Under the pieces are notes generated by a model. That model saw only the letters and a list, made by a program, of their open reading frames with translations, did not search any database and was not told the DNA's origin. A stretch of DNA of 29,245 nucleotides, from positions 1 through 29,245 of IMG/VR virus record IMGVR_UViG_2778261122_000007, one strand, 5' to 3'. Positions 1 to 29,245 of the stretch are shown here, one piece after another. Position numbers and translations under genes: made by a program. The first letter of the stretch is position 1. Each line of letters begins with the position of its first letter. Source of the DNA: a virus (taxonomy: Duplodnaviria > Heunggongvirae > Uroviricota > Caudoviricetes).

Positions 1-567
1 TATCGCGTCCTCAACAATGAATTTTGTGATGCGGTGCCTGGTGCCTCCAGGTGACGTTAACCAGTTAACAATTAACGCCGGATACAGAGAATCCACCCAT
101 GACACTGTTTTTGGTTTTAACTGTTCCGCGTGCGCTCAGCCGCATTCACCGCATCACAAAATTCACTTTAAAAAGGGCGGCAGAGCAGTCACGGAGTAAA
201 ACTGATACCGCCAAACGTCACCAGAAAATTGATAACAGAGGGCGTTGCAGCGGGGTTGTCACTTAAGCGTATGGTCAACCTGACAACCCGGTGTCCTCAA
301 CGGGGAAGGAATAACCCCGCCATACTTACCGTCGCGCCATTTCGCGGAGTGCCACAACCGGAAGCGCACGGTCGAAGAAAATTTAACGACAGACTATCTA
401 TGAACCAGCAACCTCGCCGTGCGCTTTCGCGTTATGCTCTGACTTTTCAGGGAAATATCCTTTCAGTAAACTGTCAGTGCCGGATGCTGACCCGTGTCCG
501 GCGCACGCACTCCACCTCACCCGTGGAGAACTCCTTAATTACCAACCTTAGCTTCGTTGGTTAGCTA

Positions 568-3833: not shown

Positions 3834-3873
3834 GTGTTTATTTCAGCTCATGAGGTAATTATCAGGAGGAGTT

Positions 3874-4299
3874 GTGGCAAAAGTTTTTACACAAGAAGAG
3901 CGGGAAAAAATTAAAGGGCAGGTTGTTGAACTTGTACGCCAGAGTGGGCGCGAGACGTTACGGCAACTGGAAGCCAAGACAGGTGCGACAAGATATTTGA
4001 TGAGTGTTCTCGCCAGAGAGCTGGTTGCCAGTGGCGATGTATACAATTCTGGCTACGGGTTATTCCCGTCTGAACAGGCTCGTAAAGACTGGCAAAACGC
4101 CCGCAAAAAATTATCGAGGGCAAAGCTGAAGAAACCGGTTGTGGTTGATCCGGACCTTATGTGGTCATTACCAGATGGAGAAATACGTCGCTACGACAGG
4201 CACCTGAATATAATCTGTCGCGAGTGCCGGGAGAGCGAAGTTATGCAGCGCATACTGGCATTTTATCAAGGAAATGTTAGGTATTTTAGACGTTACTAG
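3874..4299 (+). CDS. hypothetical protein (141 aa), possibly winged-helix-like
   Basis: ORF from the track with AGGAGG Shine-Dalgarno upstream (3862-3867); sits where a helicase loader (lambda P / DnaC-like) would be expected but is far too small and has no ATPase motifs. Confidence 0.55.
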   Translation: MAKVFTQEEREKIKGQVVELVRQSGRETLRQLEAKTGATRYLMSVLARELVASGDVYNSGYGLFPSEQARKDWQNARKKLSRAKLKKPVVVDPDLMWSLPDGEIRRYDRHLNIICRECRESEVMQRILAFYQGNVRYFRRY

Positions 4300-4527: not shown

Positions 4528-5034
4528 TTATTTCTTTGCAGCCAGAATCAGGCCGTCAAGCCACTCCTGGTGACCATTGAGCATTGGGTTCGGACGAGTA
4601 TTTGCCAGGTCTTTTGCTGGAACTCCGTTCTGCGTTTCCTGTGTCAGGATACGGAGTCTGTTACCCGAGAGTTCCTCCAGTAGCCACGCATGATGAACAT
4701 CTAGGCGTTGTACAGTATCTTTTTCACCGGACCATCCGTGCCATGCCAAACGAGCAGGTTTACCTTCAGTAGGTGGAATAAATTCCACGACCTGAGCTTC
4801 AACCGGAAATCCAAATGTGCTGAAGTAAAAGCGCACGCCATTTTCCAGCTCCGGACCTTTATTGTTATAAAAGCGCACATCTGCTGAATTTTTATAGTAT
4901 TCCGGCCATAGTAATGGCTGACTAAGGAGTGGCCAAACATCATTGATGTTCAGACCGGAGATGATCATTTCATTAGACACAAAGTTATCAGTAAATCCCG
5001 GAACAAAGCCTTCTGGCCAGTGAATAGCGTTCAT
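4528..5034 (-). CDS. SRPBCC (Bet v1-like / polyketide cyclase-like) family protein
   Basis: 168 aa from ATG at 5034 (GGAGG Shine-Dalgarno on the reverse strand; the track ORF starts at TTG 5046); aromatic-rich composition typical of SRPBCC ligand-binding folds; family assigned by recognition, not by search. Confidence 0.7.
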   Translation of the reverse strand: MNAIHWPEGFVPGFTDNFVSNEMIISGLNINDVWPLLSQPLLWPEYYKNSADVRFYNNKGPELENGVRFYFSTFGFPVEAQVVEFIPPTEGKPARLAWHGWSGEKDTVQRLDVHHAWLLEELSGNRLRILTQETQNGVPAKDLANTRPNPMLNGHQEWLDGLILAAKK

Positions 5035-5169
5035 AAATGCCTCCAATTGCGGTAGTTAATTGTACTGGGTTTGCTGCGTTACGACCGCAACACGATGGCA
5101 GTGATTATTAGCGCAATGAAGTTATAAGGCGAATTATGATTACTTATAATCTTAATAAGATAAATTATA

Positions 5170-6078
5170 TCAGGAGCCAGTATCTTGGCTAACTTCTACG
5201 CATAAAGCCCGAATCCACTGATGGCTAGGGTCACGATGAGTTCGTTCATGCCAGGCCATACTCTTGGTAAAGCCCGGAACTTTCAGGGGCAAAGGGAGTA
5301 TGATTAGATCGTTGTTAGTCAGGACCATGCGGTGGGGGACAACAGCGATCATATCAGTCACTTGCAATATATCAGGAACTACTTGAAAACTATTAACTGA
5401 CATGCCTACTCGTCGTGTCAGACTGAGCTTAGCCAGTGCTTCATCTGTAACACCGGAGAAGCTACCTTCTGAAGACACCAGAATATGTTCCTGTTTGCAA
5501 AATTGTTCGAGAGTCATTTCTGAATTCGCTGACAACGGATGATTCCGTCGTGCTATGCAAACATAATCTTCTTCATAAAGTGCTCTGCCGTGCAGCTCTC
5601 CGGGAGTGGTTTGTGGTGTTACCAAAGCCAGATCAACTTCTCCCTGAGATAACTGCTGATATATTCGTTTATTGTCTACAGGCCGCACAGAGATTTTAAT
5701 ATTCGGTGCTCGATGTTTCAGCGCAGCCATCAATGGGACAACAACAGCCTTAACTGCATAGTCCGTTGCGACAATGGTATAAGTTAGTTCTGCCGTCATG
5801 GGGTCAAATTTACTTGGTTTCAGCAGAATCGCGATATCGGTGAGAATTTGTTTTACCGGCATAGCAAGCTCTTTGGCACGTAGTGTGGGAACCATACCGT
5901 GACTGGTGCGAACAAAGAGAGGATCGCAAAAATAATCACGTAATCGAATAAGCATGCCACTGACAGCGGGCTGCGTCAGGGAGAGTCGCTGCGCAGCCCG
6001 AGTCACGCTTCCCTCATCCATTAACGCATCAAAGGTCTTAAGTAAGTTAAGGTCGAGGGTTTTGATATCATTTTTCAT
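5170..6078 (-). CDS. LysR-family transcriptional regulator
   Basis: 302 aa; canonical LysR N-terminal HTH (LNLLKTFDALMDEGSVTRAAQRLSLTQPAVSGMLIRLRDYF) followed by a substrate-binding domain. Confidence 0.9.
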   Translation of the reverse strand: MKNDIKTLDLNLLKTFDALMDEGSVTRAAQRLSLTQPAVSGMLIRLRDYFCDPLFVRTSHGMVPTLRAKELAMPVKQILTDIAILLKPSKFDPMTAELTYTIVATDYAVKAVVVPLMAALKHRAPNIKISVRPVDNKRIYQQLSQGEVDLALVTPQTTPGELHGRALYEEDYVCIARRNHPLSANSEMTLEQFCKQEHILVSSEGSFSGVTDEALAKLSLTRRVGMSVNSFQVVPDILQVTDMIAVVPHRMVLTNNDLIILPLPLKVPGFTKSMAWHERTHRDPSHQWIRALCVEVSQDTGS

Positions 6079-6499: not shown

Positions 6500-6653
6500 T
6501 TTCATATTGGCGAGGTAACGGTAGTTAAGTAGAATTGCTGCGGGTGCTTGAGGCTATCTGCCTCGGGCATGAACACCAACGGCAGATAGAGAAAAGCCCC
6601 AGTTAACATTACGCGTCCTGCAAGACGTTTAACATTAATCTGAGGCCATATCT

Positions 6654-6713
6654 ATGCGACACATAGAGATTAGCCTCTTACGGACCGAAAGGTCAAGGAG
6701 AAGCAGGCTATGA
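6654..6713 (+). CDS. mok-like leader ORF (19 codons) translationally coupled to hok
   Basis: ATG 6654 to TGA 6711-6713; the stop overlaps the hok start (ctATGa). Classic mok is longer, so this is an inference. Confidence 0.3.
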   Translation: MRHIEISLLRTERSRRSRL

Positions 6714-8374: not shown

Positions 8375-8734
8375 ATGCGTATAGAGTTTGTTTTGCCTTA
8401 TCCGCCGACGGTGAATACTTACTGGCGACGTCGTGGCAGCACATATTTTGTATCAAAAGTCGGTGAGTGTTATCGCCGTGATGTGGCGCTTATTGTTCGC
8501 CAGCAGCGGCTGAAATTAAAACTGTCCGGAAGGCTGGCGATAAAGATTATTGCAGAGCCACCGGATAAGCGCCGTCGTGACCTGGACAATATCCTGAAAG
8601 CACCACTGGATGCGCTGACGCATGCCGGACTACTCATAGACGACGAGCAGTTTGATGAAATCAATATTGTGCGCGGTCAGCTCGTTCCTGGTGGGCGGCT
8701 GGGGATAAAAATCACAGAACTGGAGTGCGCATGA
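8375..8734 (+). CDS. rusA: RusA Holliday-junction resolvase
   Basis: 119 aa; DKRRRDLDN motif and overall similarity to E. coli RusA; located in the nin-like region before Q. Confidence 0.9.
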   Translation: MRIEFVLPYPPTVNTYWRRRGSTYFVSKVGECYRRDVALIVRQQRLKLKLSGRLAIKIIAEPPDKRRRDLDNILKAPLDALTHAGLLIDDEQFDEINIVRGQLVPGGRLGIKITELECA

Positions 8735-9420
8735 ATAACCAGTATTTACAGTTTGTGCGTGAGCAGCTCATTATCGCCACCGCTGATTTGAGTGGGGCAA
8801 CAAAAGGTCAGCTTGAAGTCTGGCAGGAGAATGCCATGTTCGATACAGGGCGTTACAGGCGAAAAAAAATCCGGTACCGCGATGAAGTGACTGGAAAAAT
8901 GATAACGCGGGATAATCCACCAATCCCGGGAAAGCAATCGCTGGCGAAGGGGACGTCAATTCCTCTGGTCAGTCCGGTTGAGTTTTCGACATCATCGTGG
9001 CGGCGGGCTGTTCTGTCTCTTGAAGAACATCATAAAGCCTGGTTGTTATGGTGTTACAGCGGGAGTATTTGTTGGGAATATCAGATCGCGATAACACAGT
9101 GGGCGTGGAATGAATTTAATACTCAATCCGGTACCAGAAAAATTGCAGGGAAAACGCAGGAACGCCTGAAAAAATTAATCTGGCTGGCGGCGCAGGCAGT
9201 AAAAGCAGAACTTTTAGATGGGGAAGGTTATGAATACCAGGAGCTGGCATTACTGGCGGGAGTGACAACTAAAAACTGGTCCAAAACATTTACTCGTCAC
9301 TGGGTTGCAATGAAACACATTTTTCAACGACTGGATAGTGAGGCTTTATTGTTTGTAATGAGAACGCGTTCAAAACAAAAGGCGGCATTTTCAAAGCAAA
9401 GTGTTGCAAAAGTAGATTGA
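8731..9420 (+). CDS. late-gene antiterminator Q-like protein
   Basis: 229 aa from ATG 8731 (overlaps the rusA stop in ATGA; the track starts at GTG 8725); last early gene before the tRNA/lysis region; Q family assigned by position and size, not by a recognised motif. Confidence 0.7.
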   Translation: MNNQYLQFVREQLIIATADLSGATKGQLEVWQENAMFDTGRYRRKKIRYRDEVTGKMITRDNPPIPGKQSLAKGTSIPLVSPVEFSTSSWRRAVLSLEEHHKAWLLWCYSGSICWEYQIAITQWAWNEFNTQSGTRKIAGKTQERLKKLIWLAAQAVKAELLDGEGYEYQELALLAGVTTKNWSKTFTRHWVAMKHIFQRLDSEALLFVMRTRSKQKAAFSKQSVAKVD

Positions 9421-9630: not shown

Positions 9631-9706
9631 GGCCCTTTAGCTCAGTGGTGAGAGCGAGCGACTCATAATCGCCAGGTCGCTGGTTCAAATCCAGCAAGGG
9701 CCACCA
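9631..9706 (+). tRNA. tRNA with CAU anticodon, Ile2 (lysidine) type, ileX/ileZ-like
   Basis: Manual cloverleaf: acceptor GGCCCTT/AAGGGCC, anticodon arm GCGACTCATAATCGC, T-loop TTCAAAT, encoded CCA; very close to my recollection of E. coli ileX. Confidence 0.8.
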
Positions 9707-9707
9707 A

Positions 9708-9784
9708 CCGCCACTAGCTCATCAGGAAAGAGCGTCAACCCTTTAAGTTGAGTGTGCGAGGTTCGAGTCCCCGGTGGCGGTCCA
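9708..9784 (+). tRNA. tRNA-like gene, anticodon loop CCUUUAA (apparent anticodon UUU, Lys); non-canonical C33 and an A-C mismatch in the T-stem
   Basis: Manual fold: acceptor CCGCCAC/GTGGCGG, D-arm GCTC/GAGC, anticodon stem TCAAC/GTTGA, T-loop TTCGAGT, encoded CCA. Identity is uncertain; it could be a degenerate or specialised tRNA. Confidence 0.5.
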
Positions 9785-9786
9785 GT

Positions 9787-9862
<76 letters not shown>

Positions 9863-9865
9863 TAT

Positions 9866-9940
<75 letters not shown>

Positions 9941-12028: not shown

Positions 12029-12568
12029 TTAGAAACTGCGTGGAGCTGTGGAAAGAATGGATGCCAGTTCTTCCTTCGATAAATCCCAGCTTCGATTTAC
12101 AGCGTCAATTTTCTTACACTCATCAAGCATTGCGTTATAGAGATGTTCTGTAAGTGAATGAGTATTGGCAATGGGCTGTTTCTGTTCGGGGAAGCGATCA
12201 AATTTCTGATACGCCTCAATGATACTGAAGTAATCGCATTCATTATTACCGTCGAAACCTGGAAGCTGAATTGCCCCATCATGTATTTTTAGATGATGGT
12301 CACGGACTAATTCTTTTTGCTCGTCATCACTAAGTTTCCTGAAAGCATTGGAAAGTCCGCGATACATATTCAAGACAGCAGTAACAAAATCACGATCTTC
12401 TTTACTTGGTTCGTCAACATCCAAATGTGAATATTCGGCCTTGATAACCCAATCATTACCAGATGACACAGCATATTTAACAAGCTGTGGATCAATATCA
12501 GTTTCGATACCTAGGTGGATGGCAATGTCACATAACAAAATGGTATTGATTTTATCTTTAATATCCAT
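12029..12568 (-). CDS. YfbU-family (UPF0304-like) protein; moron between the lysis and packaging modules
   Basis: 179 aa; recalled similarity to E. coli YfbU (VLNMY..L, GFDGNNE versus GFDAATE, FDRFPEQ region); opposite orientation to the flanking phage operons. Confidence 0.6.
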   Translation of the reverse strand: MDIKDKINTILLCDIAIHLGIETDIDPQLVKYAVSSGNDWVIKAEYSHLDVDEPSKEDRDFVTAVLNMYRGLSNAFRKLSDDEQKELVRDHHLKIHDGAIQLPGFDGNNECDYFSIIEAYQKFDRFPEQKQPIANTHSLTEHLYNAMLDECKKIDAVNRSWDLSKEELASILSTAPRSF

Positions 12569-26165: not shown

Positions 26166-26909
26166 ATGACAGAGACAGAATCAGCGATTCTGGCGCACGC
26201 CCGGCGATGTGCGCCAGCGGAGTCGTGCGGCTTCGTGGTGAGAACGCCGGAGGGGGAAAGATATTTTCCCTGTGTGAATATTTCCGGTGAGCCGGAGGAT
26301 TATTTCCGGATGGCTCCGGAGGACTGGCTGCATGCAGAGATGCAGGGTGAGATTGTGGCGCTGGTCCACAGTCACCCCGGTGGTCTGCCCTGGCTGAGTG
26401 AGGCTGACCGGCGGCTGCAGGTGCAGAGTGATTTGCCGTGGTGGCTGGTCTGCCGGGGGGCGATTCATAAGTTCCGCTGTGTGCCGCATCTCACCGGGCG
26501 GCGCTTTGAGCACGGGGTGACGGACTGTTACACGCTGTTCCGGGATGCTTATCATCTGGCGGGGATTGAGATGCCGGATTTTCATCGCGGGGATGACTGG
26601 TGGCGTCACGGTCAGAATCTCTATCTGGATAATCTGGAGGCCACAGGACTGTATCAGGTGCCGTTGTCAGCGGCGCAGCCGGGCGATGTGCTGCTGTGCT
26701 GTTTTGGTTCATCGGTGCCGAATCATGCCGCCATTTACTGTGGTGACGGCGAGCTGCTGCACCATATTCCTGAACAACTGAGCAAACGAGAGAGGTATAC
26801 CGACAAATGGCAGCGACGCACACACTCCCTCTGGCGTCACCGGGCATGGCACGCATCTGCCTTTACGGGGATTTACAACGATTTGGCCGCCGCATCGACC
26901 TTCGTGTAA
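26166..26909 (+). CDS. K: tail assembly protein K (MPN/JAB and NlpC/P60 domains)
   Basis: ATG 26166 within the track ORF 26091-26909; MTETESAILAHARRCAPAESCGFVV... is near-identical to lambda K as I recall it. Confidence 0.9.
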   Translation: MTETESAILAHARRCAPAESCGFVVRTPEGERYFPCVNISGEPEDYFRMAPEDWLHAEMQGEIVALVHSHPGGLPWLSEADRRLQVQSDLPWWLVCRGAIHKFRCVPHLTGRRFEHGVTDCYTLFRDAYHLAGIEMPDFHRGDDWWRHGQNLYLDNLEATGLYQVPLSAAQPGDVLLCCFGSSVPNHAAIYCGDGELLHHIPEQLSKRERYTDKWQRRTHSLWRHRAWHASAFTGIYNDLAAASTFV

Positions 26910-27478
26910 AAACGGGGGCTGAAGCCATCCGGGCGCTGTCCACACAGGTCCCGGCGTTTCGTCAGAAACTGAATGACGGCTGGTATCAGGTGCGCATTGC
27001 CGGGCGTGATGCAGGTGAAACCGAATTATCTGCCCGTCTTAATGAGCCGCTGGCAAATGGTGCCGTGATCCATATCGTGCCGCGTCTGGCGGGAGCTAAA
27101 AGTGGCGGTGTGTTTCAGGCTGTGCTGGGGGCGGCGCTGATTGCGGTGGCATGGTGGAACCCTGTGGGCTGGCTGGGTGCCGCGGCTGTATCGGGCATGT
27201 ATGCGGCAGGGGCCAGTATGATCCTGGGCGGTGTGGCGCAGATGCTGGCACCGAAAGCCAGGACGCCCACGGCAGCAAGTACAGATAACGGCAAACAGAA
27301 CACCTATTTCTCGTCACTGGATAACATGGTTGCCCAGGGCAATGTTCTGCCTGTTCTGTACGGTGAAATGCGTGTGGGGTCGCGGGTGATTTCGCAGGAA
27401 GTCAGTACCCGTGATGAAGGGAACGATGGGAATATAGTGGTTATAGGGCGACAGGTATACAACAGCAGACATCTGTGA
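26807..27478 (+). CDS. I: tail assembly protein I
   Basis: 223 aa; MAATHTLPLASPGMARICLYGDLQRFGRRIDLRVKTG... is near-identical to lambda I as I recall it; overlaps the 3' end of K. Confidence 0.85.
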   Translation: MAATHTLPLASPGMARICLYGDLQRFGRRIDLRVKTGAEAIRALSTQVPAFRQKLNDGWYQVRIAGRDAGETELSARLNEPLANGAVIHIVPRLAGAKSGGVFQAVLGAALIAVAWWNPVGWLGAAAVSGMYAAGASMILGGVAQMLAPKARTPTAASTDNGKQNTYFSSLDNMVAQGNVLPVLYGEMRVGSRVISQEVSTRDEGNDGNIVVIGRQVYNSRHL

Positions 27479-27523
27479 GAACCCTCTTTGCATGGAAAAA
27501 TTGTTCAATGGTTATGGCGTAAG

Positions 27524-27547
27524 GGTAAGGGGGCTGCTCCCCTTACC
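27524..27547. terminator. perfect 9-bp stem-loop between convergent I and sodC; candidate bidirectional terminator
   Basis: GGTAAGGGG-GCTGCT-CCCCTTACC; no strong U tract on either side. Confidence 0.45.
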
Positions 27548-27554
27548 AGATTGA

Positions 27555-28082
27555 TTATGGAATGATGCCGCAGGCTATTCTCGCCCCGCCACCGCCGAGT
27601 GGCTCAGGATGGTCATGATGGTTGTCACCGCCTATGTGGATCATGAGAGAACGCCCGCCTATCTCTTGTAACCCTGTCAGTTTCGGTGCGAGTACAGGAT
27701 AGTTCGCCTTTCCATCATGAGTCACATACAGCGCAGGGAGATCACCGAGATGTCCGTCAGGAGACCAGGGGCCAAGATGCTTCCCGGTTTTTTTCGGGTC
27801 AAAGTGACCTCCTGCCGATAATGCCGCGACAGGTTTCCCGTCTTTCAGTGCCGGAGCGCAGTTTCCGTTCTCGTGTACATGAAAACCATGAATACCTTCG
27901 GGTAAAGAGTGAAGATCCGGAGTGAACAGCAGACCATAGGTCGTCTCCTGGACAGTTATTTTTCCAATGCTCTGTTCTTTTCCATCAGCATTCACAAGGT
28001 TCATCGGGACTTCTTTTGTGGCTGCGTATCCACACGATGATGCTGCCAGCATTGCAATGGCAGCAATAACGTTACATTTCAT
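27555..28082 (-). CDS. sodC: periplasmic Cu,Zn superoxide dismutase (prophage-borne moron)
   Basis: Start taken at ATG 28082 (GAGGG Shine-Dalgarno; the track ORF begins 4 codons earlier); signal peptide [20 protein letters not shown]; metal-ligand His motifs ([39 protein letters not shown]) typical of SodC. Confidence 0.9.
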
Positions 28083-28219
28083 AAAACCCCTCATTAAATC
28101 CTGTTAACAGACTGAGTTCGCTGCTTGCAGGAAAACAAGCAGCATTTCGATGATATCGCGCAAAAGTTATGCAATGTGGCTATTGCTGTGATTAATCATA
28201 TCAATCATAAGAGAGCATT

Positions 28220-29245
28220 ATGGGTAAAGGTGGCGGTAAAGCACGTACTCCGCATGAAGTGAAAGATAATCTCAAATCCACGCAGTTACTGAGTGTGATC
28301 GATGCCATCAGCGAAGGGCCGATTGAAGGTCCGGTGGATGGGTTAAAAAGCGTGCTACTGAACAGTACGCCGGTGCTGGACACTGAGGGGAATACCAATA
28401 TCTCCGGTGTCACGGTGGTGTTCCGGGCAGGTGAGCAGGAGCAGACTCCGCCGGAGGGGTTTGAATCCTCCGGCTCCGAGACGGTGCTGGGTACGGAAGT
28501 GAAATATGACACGCCGATAACCCGCACCATCACGTCGGCAAACATCGACCGTCTGCGTTTTACCTTCGGTGTGCAGGCACTGGTGGAAACCACTTCAAAG
28601 GGTGACCGGAATCCGTCGGAAGTTCGCCTGCTGGTTCAGATACAGCGTAACGGTGGCTGGGTGACGGAAAAAGACATCACCATTAAGGGCAAAACCACCT
28701 CGCAGTATCTGGCCTCGGTGGTGGTGGATAACCTGCCTCCGCGCCCGTTCAATATCCGGATGCGCAGGATGACACCGGACAGCACCACAGACCAGCTGCA
28801 GAACAAAACGCTCTGGTCGTCATACACCGAAATCATCGATATGAAACAGTGCTACCCGAACACGGCACTGGTCGGTGTGCAGGTGGACTCGGAGCAGTTC
28901 GGCAGTCAGCAGGTGAGTCGTAATTATCATCTGCGCGGGCGCATTCTGCAGGTGCCGTCGAACTATAACCCGCAGACGCGACAATACAGCGGTATCTGGG
29001 ACGGAACGTTAAAACCGGCATACAGCAACAACATGGCCTGGTGTCTGTGGGATATGCTGACCCATCCGCGCTACGGCATGGGGAAACGTCTTGGTGCGGC
29101 GGATGTGGACAAATGGGCGCTGTATGTCATCGGCCAGAATTGCGACCAGTCGGTGCCGGATGGCTTTGGTGGCACGGAGCCGCGCATCACCTGTAATGCC
29201 TGGCTGACCACACAGCGTAAGGCGTGGGATGTTCTCAGTGATTTC
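28220..29245 (+). CDS. J: tail tip / host-specificity protein J, N-terminal 342 codons (3'-truncated at window end)
   Basis: Absent from the ORF track because it has no stop codon in the window; from ATG 28220 the translation MGKGGGKARTPHEVKDNLKSTQLLSVIDAISEGPIEGPVDGLKSVLLNSTPVLDTEGNTNISGV... closely matches lambda J as I recall it. Confidence 0.9.
   Translation, partial: MGKGGGKARTPHEVKDNLKSTQLLSVIDAISEGPIEGPVDGLKSVLLNSTPVLDTEGNTNISGVTVVFRAGEQEQTPPEGFESSGSETVLGTEVKYDTPITRTITSANIDRLRFTFGVQALVETTSKGDRNPSEVRLLVQIQRNGGWVTEKDITIKGKTTSQYLASVVVDNLPPRPFNIRMRRMTPDSTTDQLQNKTLWSSYTEIIDMKQCYPNTALVGVQVDSEQFGSQQVSRNYHLRGRILQVPSNYNPQTRQYSGIWDGTLKPAYSNNMAWCLWDMLTHPRYGMGKRLGAADVDKWALYVIGQNCDQSVPDGFGGTEPRITCNAWLTTQRKAWDVLSDF

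Follow-up and report, generated by a model that had tools for sequence, protein, structure and literature searches.

The sodC locus and its position between tail genes I and J

The locus described here is part of a 29,245-nucleotide stretch of viral DNA (positions 1 to 29,245 of IMG/VR record IMGVR_UViG_2778261122_000007, class Caudoviricetes), which is referred to as the window in the following and represents a lambda-like prophage. All late genes of this prophage are encoded on the plus strand. Between the gene for tail assembly protein I (26807–27478, plus strand; Pfam Lambda_tail_I, 1.1e-24) and the gene for J, the tail tip and host specificity protein, whose 5′ part (28220–29245, plus strand; Pfam FNIII-A_GpJ, 1.2e-42) runs off the window, lies a gene on the minus strand that encodes the precursor of a Cu,Zn superoxide dismutase (SOD). 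Composition, conservation and junctions of the region support the view that this gene, sodC, is an antisense cargo gene (“moron”) at the I–J junction, the assignment of its own promoter and terminator being provisional.

The sodC coding sequence (CDS; 27555–28082, minus strand) comprises 175 codons for a protein of 175 amino acids (aa), with the ATG at 28082 and the stop codon at 27555–27557, and is thus located exactly where an initial annotation of the window had placed it. A second in-frame ATG at 28094 would yield a longer open reading frame (ORF), but was rejected as the start of sodC because it is out of frame in the sister alleles, which have a 1-nt deletion between both ATGs. The 528-nt CDS annotated by PGAP is also the shorter of the two frames. 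A Shine-Dalgarno sequence of its own, which had likewise been ascribed to sodC, can be read directly from the DNA as GAGGGG (28087–28092, minus strand), 4 nt 5′ of the ATG, and is kept in all alleles.

The end of gene I and the stop codon of sodC are 76 nt apart, and a spacer of 137 bp separates sodC from J. Phage 434, PhiR46_1 and the EC12 prophage contain no sodC, and their I–J gap is only 60 bp. The initial annotation had described sodC as an antisense moron splitting a junction that is contiguous in lambda. The orientation of the gene and its absence from this junction in related prophages agree with this description, and the contiguity is correct in substance, except that sodC-less lambda-like phages have the 60-bp spacer, which contains a terminator-like hairpin of its own (AAACCGCC..GGCGGTTTT). 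The EC12 prophage is 92–94% identical to the window on either flank; in blastn alignments, the homology breaks at 27420 and restarts exactly at the ATG of J, so that a segment of 799 bp (27421–28219), compared to 94 bp in EC12, has no counterpart there. The cassette core common to the prophages of E. coli O157 spans 27520–28205 (blastn match, query positions 42–727).

Both boundaries of the inserted segment affect the flanking tail genes. At the left insertion junction, a C-terminal extension of eight residues (QVYNSRHL, codons 27452–27475) has arisen in the gene I product, gpI. This protein ends with ...VIGR* in sodC-less phages and in the Salmonella prophage Fels-1, but with ...VIGRQA* in O157 and ...VIGRQVYNSRHL* in the window, and all E. 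coli sodC carriers examined share the ...IGRQ... end. These differences indicate that I lost its ancestral stop codon through the insertion and that the O157 and window lineages have this left junction in common. At the right side, the ribosome-binding site of J (GAGAG, 28211–28215) is supplied by the end of the cassette. The base composition deviates as well: the cassette has a GC content of 48.6% versus 56–58% in the flanks, with dips to 42–51% within the segment 27421–28219, and the GC content at third codon positions (GC3) is 0.46 in sodC versus 0.59–0.68 in the flanking genes. The intact gene, its deviating composition and its absence from near-identical prophages bear out the earlier proposal that sodC marks the prophage as cargo-carrying.

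The predicted superoxide dismutase and its leader peptide

The protein encoded by sodC matches the Pfam family Sod_Cu (PF00080) with an E-value of 1e-32 and a score of 113.8 bits (cut-off 28.9) over profile positions 3–133 of 133, and it is identical to the RefSeq protein WP_042343756.1, which is annotated as sodC. Its best solved relative is SodCI of Salmonella (PDB 1eqw and 6d52, about 4e-60; 3.6e-60 for 1eqw), followed by the enzymes of Yersinia, Haemophilus and Actinobacillus and the monomeric SodC of E. coli. The protein was aligned with the products of five E. coli alleles, the Fels-1 homologue and SodCI of the Salmonella prophage Gifsy-2. All seven metal ligands are invariant in this alignment, namely the two ligands of Cu only, H68 and H70, which form the HxH motif, the bridging H93, the Zn ligands H102, H111 and D114, and H149 as the fourth Cu ligand. 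The same residues also line up with the ligand motifs of 1eqw, and the disulfide pair C75/C171 and the active-site residue R168 are invariant, too. Hence, the comparison to SodCI and SodC-F proposed in the initial annotation revealed no loss of metal ligands. Between alleles, the ratio of nonsynonymous to synonymous substitution rates (dN/dS) is 0.09–0.16, which argues that sodC is under purifying selection. Judged by its sequence, the gene encodes an intact Cu,Zn-SOD. SOD activity was demonstrated for SodC-F1 of O157:H7, a homologue with 86% identity (D'Orazio et al., 2008; PMC2569942). SodC-F1 is dimeric, and it is from this degree of identity only that a dimeric state may be expected for the window SodC.

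The N-terminus of the precursor carries the signal peptide that had been predicted earlier (encoded at 28082–28023, minus strand). It combines two potential processing sites: Cys17 (codon 28034–28032, minus strand) matches a PROSITE-style lipobox rule and is followed by GYA|A, an A-x-A-like signal peptidase I site that makes a cleavage after residue 20 the candidate position. SodC-F of O157 has the identical two leader sites, and its product is split between periplasm and membrane (PMC2569942).

The upstream region and the 3′ hairpin

The sodC–J spacer of the window is 76% identical to that of the O157 allele, while the synonymous divergence (dS) of 0.71 between both sodC genes implies that approximately 46% of the synonymous sites differ. 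This difference points to constraint on the spacer. Two minus-strand promoter candidates are located in it. The first one, with the −10-like hexamer TATCAT (28150–28155), lies inside the nearly invariant block GATATCAT, and its transcription start would land at the edge of an 8-bp palindrome described below. If TATCAT served as the −10 element, the mRNA would begin with this palindrome, and hairpins in such a 5′-terminal position are known to stabilize transcripts. The second candidate is the extended −10-like element TGATATGAT (28203–28195), whose counterparts TGGTATTAT in O157 and TTGCATAAT in str144 have kept the −10-like character. It overlaps a 24-nt imperfect palindrome (28182–28205) with the perfect core TGATTAATCA (28189–28198); this block is the best conserved part of the upstream region, with 38–39 of 40 positions retained in comparisons to three alleles. 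A 10-bp palindrome (CTGTTAACAG, 28101–28110) in the 5′ untranslated region (UTR) or promoter region of sodC is also conserved across alleles. Neither of these two palindromes had been listed in the initial annotation.

The palindrome that had been listed, GCTGCTTG-N8-CAAGCAGC at 28120–28143, with arms at 28120–28127 and 28136–28143, is perfect at the position given for it, but this holds true only for the allele group comprising the window, L001 and L098. Elsewhere the symmetry is broken in the middle by a C·C or U·C mismatch, and the copy on plasmid pSCU111 is degenerate. When the window was shuffled 100 times, matches with at most three mismatches turned up in 16 cases, and the palindrome taken alone is therefore not beyond chance. 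The element may be either an operator or a hairpin in the 5′ UTR. A role as a regulator site was suggested before; the perfect 8-bp arms at a spacing of 8 nt, located 38 nt in front of the sodC ATG, would suit the operator of a dimeric regulator of sodC. Moreover, the outer CTG/CAG and the inner TTG/CAA triplets are retained in most alleles, and TTG-N8-CAA resembles by eye the frame of an FNR/CRP-type site. However, besides its imperfection in other alleles and its frequency in shuffled sequence, the block is less conserved than its neighbors GATATCAT and TGATTAATCA, and no regulator motif matched convincingly. It is just as conceivable that the palindrome folds into a hairpin close to or directly at the mRNA 5′ end, or that it lacks any function, and we regard a regulator site as rather unlikely. 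The boxes of FNR, Fur, PhoP, Zur, MarA/SoxS and IHF, whose consensus sequences were compared by eye to the upstream palindromes, were all discarded because none of them matched well enough.

At the other end of the gene, a stem-loop (27524–27547, minus strand) starts 7 nt past the sodC stop codon. As claimed in the initial annotation, it is a perfect 9-bp hairpin between the convergent 3′ ends of I and sodC; its arms, GGTAAGGGG and CCCCTTACC at 27524–27532 and 27539–27547, are 100% complementary and enclose a loop of 6 nt. Across six distinct alleles, 100% of the alignment cells are paired, including two compensatory pairs and one G-U pair. The compensatory changes, G-C to A-U, were observed in str144 and pZH49. 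When the structure was slid by one to three alignment columns, only 43–74% of the cells were paired and no compensatory changes remained. With only six sequences, this covariation is supportive rather than conclusive. The homologous hairpins of O157 and pZH49 have the tails TTTATTCC and TTTAATC, respectively, and a terminator scan classed both of them as terminator-like on the strand of sodC and the pZH49 hairpin on the other strand, too. Because the hairpin moves together with sodC into plasmids and non-phage sites, it belongs to the sodC cassette.

An exact-pattern search of IMG/VR for the hairpin retrieved 71 contigs, in 42 of which the match is a 3′ end of sodC. The remaining 29 contigs contain unrelated stem-loops in unrelated metagenomic phages, and the possibility of a dispersed mobile repeat was dismissed. 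A site-specific recombination signal was rejected as well, because the cassette copies that escaped from prophages end differently: the pSCU111 copy breaks directly after the sodC stop codon and lacks the hairpin, and the one on pPSJ-22 retains a stub of I. No Rfam family was detected at the sodC locus, neither by a search of the whole window at the gathering threshold nor by a search of 27400–28300 at E ≤ 1. Another terminator-like stem with a T-run lies inside sodC on the plus strand (27768–27783), which is the strand of the late transcript. This hit is probably incidental, because it falls within the codons of the conserved motif FDPKKTGKH and the number of such hits that chance alone would give in this region is about 0.9.

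Proposed expression and function of the sodC cassette

We consider it very likely that the region is a self-contained sodC moron carried by a lambda-like prophage of E. coli and encodes a periplasmic and possibly partly lipid-anchored enzyme of the SodC-F/SodCI type. In the lysogen, leftward transcription would start from a weak, non-consensus promoter of the cassette itself in the 137-bp sodC–J spacer, and the mRNA would be translated from the GAGGGG site. After Sec-dependent export, the precursor would either be cut by signal peptidase I after Ala20 or be lipidated at Cys17, and the enzyme would remove superoxide arriving from outside the cell. The stem-loop behind the stop codon would define the 3′ terminus of the mRNA, which it would either terminate or stabilize. 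During lytic growth, RNA polymerase modified by the late-gene antiterminator Q would arrive from upstream, read through the cassette in antisense, with no T-run on the late strand in its way, and reach J, which would use the ribosome-binding site supplied by the cassette. Q is encoded at 8725–9420 on the plus strand (Pfam Phage_antiter_Q, 5.6e-91) and is followed on the same strand by the tRNA cluster and the lysis, head and tail genes, sodC being oriented opposite to this late operon. From this gene order, late transcription is expected to cross sodC. The hairpin is best interpreted as a 3′ end element of the sodC mRNA, which in the window allele may be a weakened terminator and would be harmless to late transcription.

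Several points weigh against this interpretation. Firstly, a scan for consensus sigma-70 promoters found none on either strand of 27300–28400, nor did the same scan in the O157 and pZH49 alleles, and a laxer scan yielded just −10-like elements with poor −35 hexamers, among them the two minus-strand candidates described above. Secondly, the window hairpin has the stem of a Rho-independent terminator, but no U-tract was found on either strand and the terminator scan did not flag it: on the sodC strand it is followed by CUUACGCC / CTTACGCC, and its late-strand tail AGATTGAT contains no T-run. Transcription of sodC may consequently continue into I in antisense. Thirdly, the sister allele WP_086590367.1 has a Tyr instead of the lipobox Cys, which shows that the family can do without lipidation. 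Finally, what is proposed for the window allele with respect to promoter position, termination at the hairpin, late read-through, expression, activity, localization and lipidation derives solely from the layout of the locus and from the homologues in O157 and Salmonella.

Transcription of sodC in the lysogen might even proceed through I, K and L and yield a long antisense RNA, and the cassette with its conserved upstream palindromes would then be a regulatory device as well. This is conceivable because the window hairpin has lost the U-tract and the back-up terminator of the O157 type (see below) is missing, but we assign it a small probability. If true, convergent transcription could damp leaky expression of the tail genes or hinder superinfection by relatives, an effect described for the antisense RNA STnc6030 of the Salmonella prophage BTP1 (PMC7067206). 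Even less probable is that the hairpin at 27524–27547 constitutes a bidirectional intrinsic terminator that insulates the convergent units, so that J would need a promoter of its own in the cassette: the stem is GC-rich, perfect and conserved, and its pZH49 homologue was flagged on both strands, but the tails of the window hairpin argue against termination in either direction, neither the consensus nor the lax scan found a promoter-like site upstream of J on the plus strand, all 42 phage contigs retain J directly downstream at the same short spacing, and Q is present upstream of the tail genes. In lambda, the Q-modified polymerase ignores intrinsic terminators. The notion of sodC as a decaying remnant or silent passenger without function for the lysogen, which would fit the non-consensus promoter and the rarity of the window allele (matched at 99% identity or more by just 2 of the 5426 complete E. 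coli genomes), is scarcely compatible with an intact ORF that keeps every catalytic residue, a dN/dS of about 0.1, an upstream region more conserved than synonymous sites, the retention of the cassette after transfer to plasmids, and the expression and protective effect of the O157 homologues (PMC2569942).

Since phage-borne periplasmic SodC aids Salmonella and E. coli O157:H7 against oxidative attack, a lysogen carrying the window allele probably gains the same protection.

Comparison to other phage-borne and chromosomal sodC genes

The sodC cargo arrangement is already known in kind, and this exact sequence is annotated in RefSeq. As gene, position and orientation are recorded there and homologues have been characterized experimentally, the current understanding of such elements is unchanged. 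The window adds modestly to it by the precise insertion boundaries, with loss of the stop codon of I and replacement of the ribosome-binding site of J, by the different construction of the I–J insertions in E. coli and Fels-1, and by plasmid and island cassettes with a J stub, which indicate phage-to-plasmid transfer.

The closest characterized counterparts are SodC-F1 and SodC-F2 of E. coli O157:H7, encoded by prophages CP-933R and CP-933V in the same I–J position and orientation. Their amino acid identity to the window protein is 86%, and over the 686-bp cassette, to which the 3′ hairpin and the upstream region belong, the DNA identity is 82.5%. The combined signal peptidase I and lipobox leader and the left junction with the ...IGRQ... 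end of gpI are common to both. A 299-bp upstream fragment drives expression of the O157 genes. This expression takes place in log phase and under anaerobic conditions and does not require RpoS; the dimeric product protects against H2O2 and is found partly in the membrane fraction due to the lipobox (D'Orazio et al., 2008; PMC2569942). Apart from the synonymous divergence given above, the O157 allele differs from that of the window in three features. Next to I, it contains an extra segment of approximately 115 bp, in which a second hairpin with strong terminator character precedes the shared one on the plus strand and faces the sodC transcript (GCGGGATTTTTTCGCTTTT; record L006, 2846–2872), and which is absent in the window; it has a T-rich tail after the shared hairpin, which the window also lacks; and its 8-bp upstream palindrome is imperfect, whereas that of the window allele is perfect.

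In Fels-1, the gene STM0924, which we take to be SodCIII although its record is labeled as a hypothetical protein, is likewise inserted between the homologues of I and J on the opposite strand, and its product is 61% identical to the window SodC. However, gpI of Fels-1 has the normal ...IGR* end, the lambda-type hairpin AAACCGCC..GGCGGTTTT (AAACCGCCTCTGGGCGGTTTT) is kept directly before J (record L005, approximately 3845–3990, reverse strand), and the non-coding DNA flanking the gene cannot be aligned to the window. The intact end of I, the retained lambda hairpin and the different construction of the junctions suggest that the Fels-1 sodC stems from an independent insertion event between I and J.

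The virulence factor SodCI of Gifsy-2, represented by PDB structure 1eqw, shares 57% identity with the window protein and is also encoded antisense to a lambdoid tail operon. In this case, the gene occupies another junction, between M/Lom-like genes and L instead of I–J, and its regulatory DNA bears no relation to that of the window. In Gifsy-2 lysogens, sodCI is expressed at a high level although the genes of the lytic cycle are not (PMC7067206). The classical lambda morons (“more DNA” units of the Hendrix type) bor and lom are similar to sodC in being accessory genes of deviating composition among essential late genes, with expression independent of the late operon. Unlike these two genes, sodC runs against the direction of the late operon, and it takes the place of the entire 60-bp I–J spacer. 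A lom homologue follows J in related prophages. The chromosomal SodC of E. coli (PDB 1eso) belongs to the same enzyme family (2e-56) and is far more distant on the DNA level. This enzyme is monomeric, RpoS-dependent and not lipidated, and it is 61% identical to SodC-F (PMC2569942).

Distribution of the cassette and its transfer to plasmids

The protein WP_042343756.1 is found in the prophages of E. coli Z1323HEC0477 and TUM14697, where its gene sits in the same place between a “tail assembly protein” and gpJ. Over 1101 compared bases, these two prophages differ from the window by one and five bases, respectively. In blastn searches against 5426 complete E. coli genomes, the cassette was present at a coverage of at least 80% in 569 genomes, mostly as the O157 allele with 82.5% identity, and any match at all was obtained in 695; the chromosomal sodC copy is not detected by this search. 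The arrangement of I, antisense sodC and J occurs in O157:H7 prophages, an Stx2a phage and Fels-1 of Salmonella. Among the 42 close relatives from IMG/VR, 41 contigs contain both I and J as flanking genes on the opposite strand, and the remaining one ends before I. A scan of species-representative genomes, among the matches listed, returned only the chromosomal sodC genes of Pseudomonas and Serratia with 59–72% identity, and is uninformative for the non-coding parts of the cassette.

Copies of the cassette also exist outside prophages, on plasmids (records L002, 6001–7183, which is pPSJ-22_1, L093 and L095), among them pPSJ-22_1, pSCU-111-2 and pZH49-3, and at non-phage sites in chromosomes (L011, L094). 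In PLSDB, 36 plasmid records match the cassette. These escaped cassettes on conjugative plasmids and islands adjoin the insertion sequences IS66, IS5, IS3 and IS110. All of them retain the first codons of J (the reverse complement of ATGGGNAAAGG) upstream of sodC, and some, including the copy on pPSJ-22_1, additionally hold a 3′ stub of I. The stubs indicate that the plasmid and island copies came from a prophage and that the cassette was transferred from phage to plasmid.

Other features of the prophage

The window also contains a gene for the small RNA DicF (175–226, minus strand), a repressor-like helix-turn-helix gene and a hok/sok module with the sok antitoxin RNA at 6542–6712 (plus strand). 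Downstream of Q, four tRNA genes are clustered on the plus strand (9631–9940; CAU, Lys-UUU, Thr-UGU and Gly-UCC). The tRNA with the CAU anticodon was classified as Met by ARAGORN, and its homologue as Ile by PGAP. Lysis genes, HK97-type head genes and the lambda-type tail genes complete the late region. In the TUM14697 prophage, the genes cdtABC of a type I cytolethal distending toxin are located downstream of the tail fibre genes (record L098, 20066–22166); the window ends inside J.

Two further segments of the window are encoded antisense to their surroundings. In the early region, a LysR-family regulator (5170–6078) and an ORF of 172 aa occupy 4528–6078 on the minus strand. For the latter, no Pfam match was found, and a related record labels it as a polyketide cyclase. 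The two genes are possibly another cargo module. On the same strand, an ORF of 179 aa with a YfbU domain (12029–12568) is located between the lysis genes and the HNH and terminase genes. As the closest related prophage, that of Z1323HEC0477, has a GNAT acetyltransferase gene at this spot, the position looks like a variable cargo slot.

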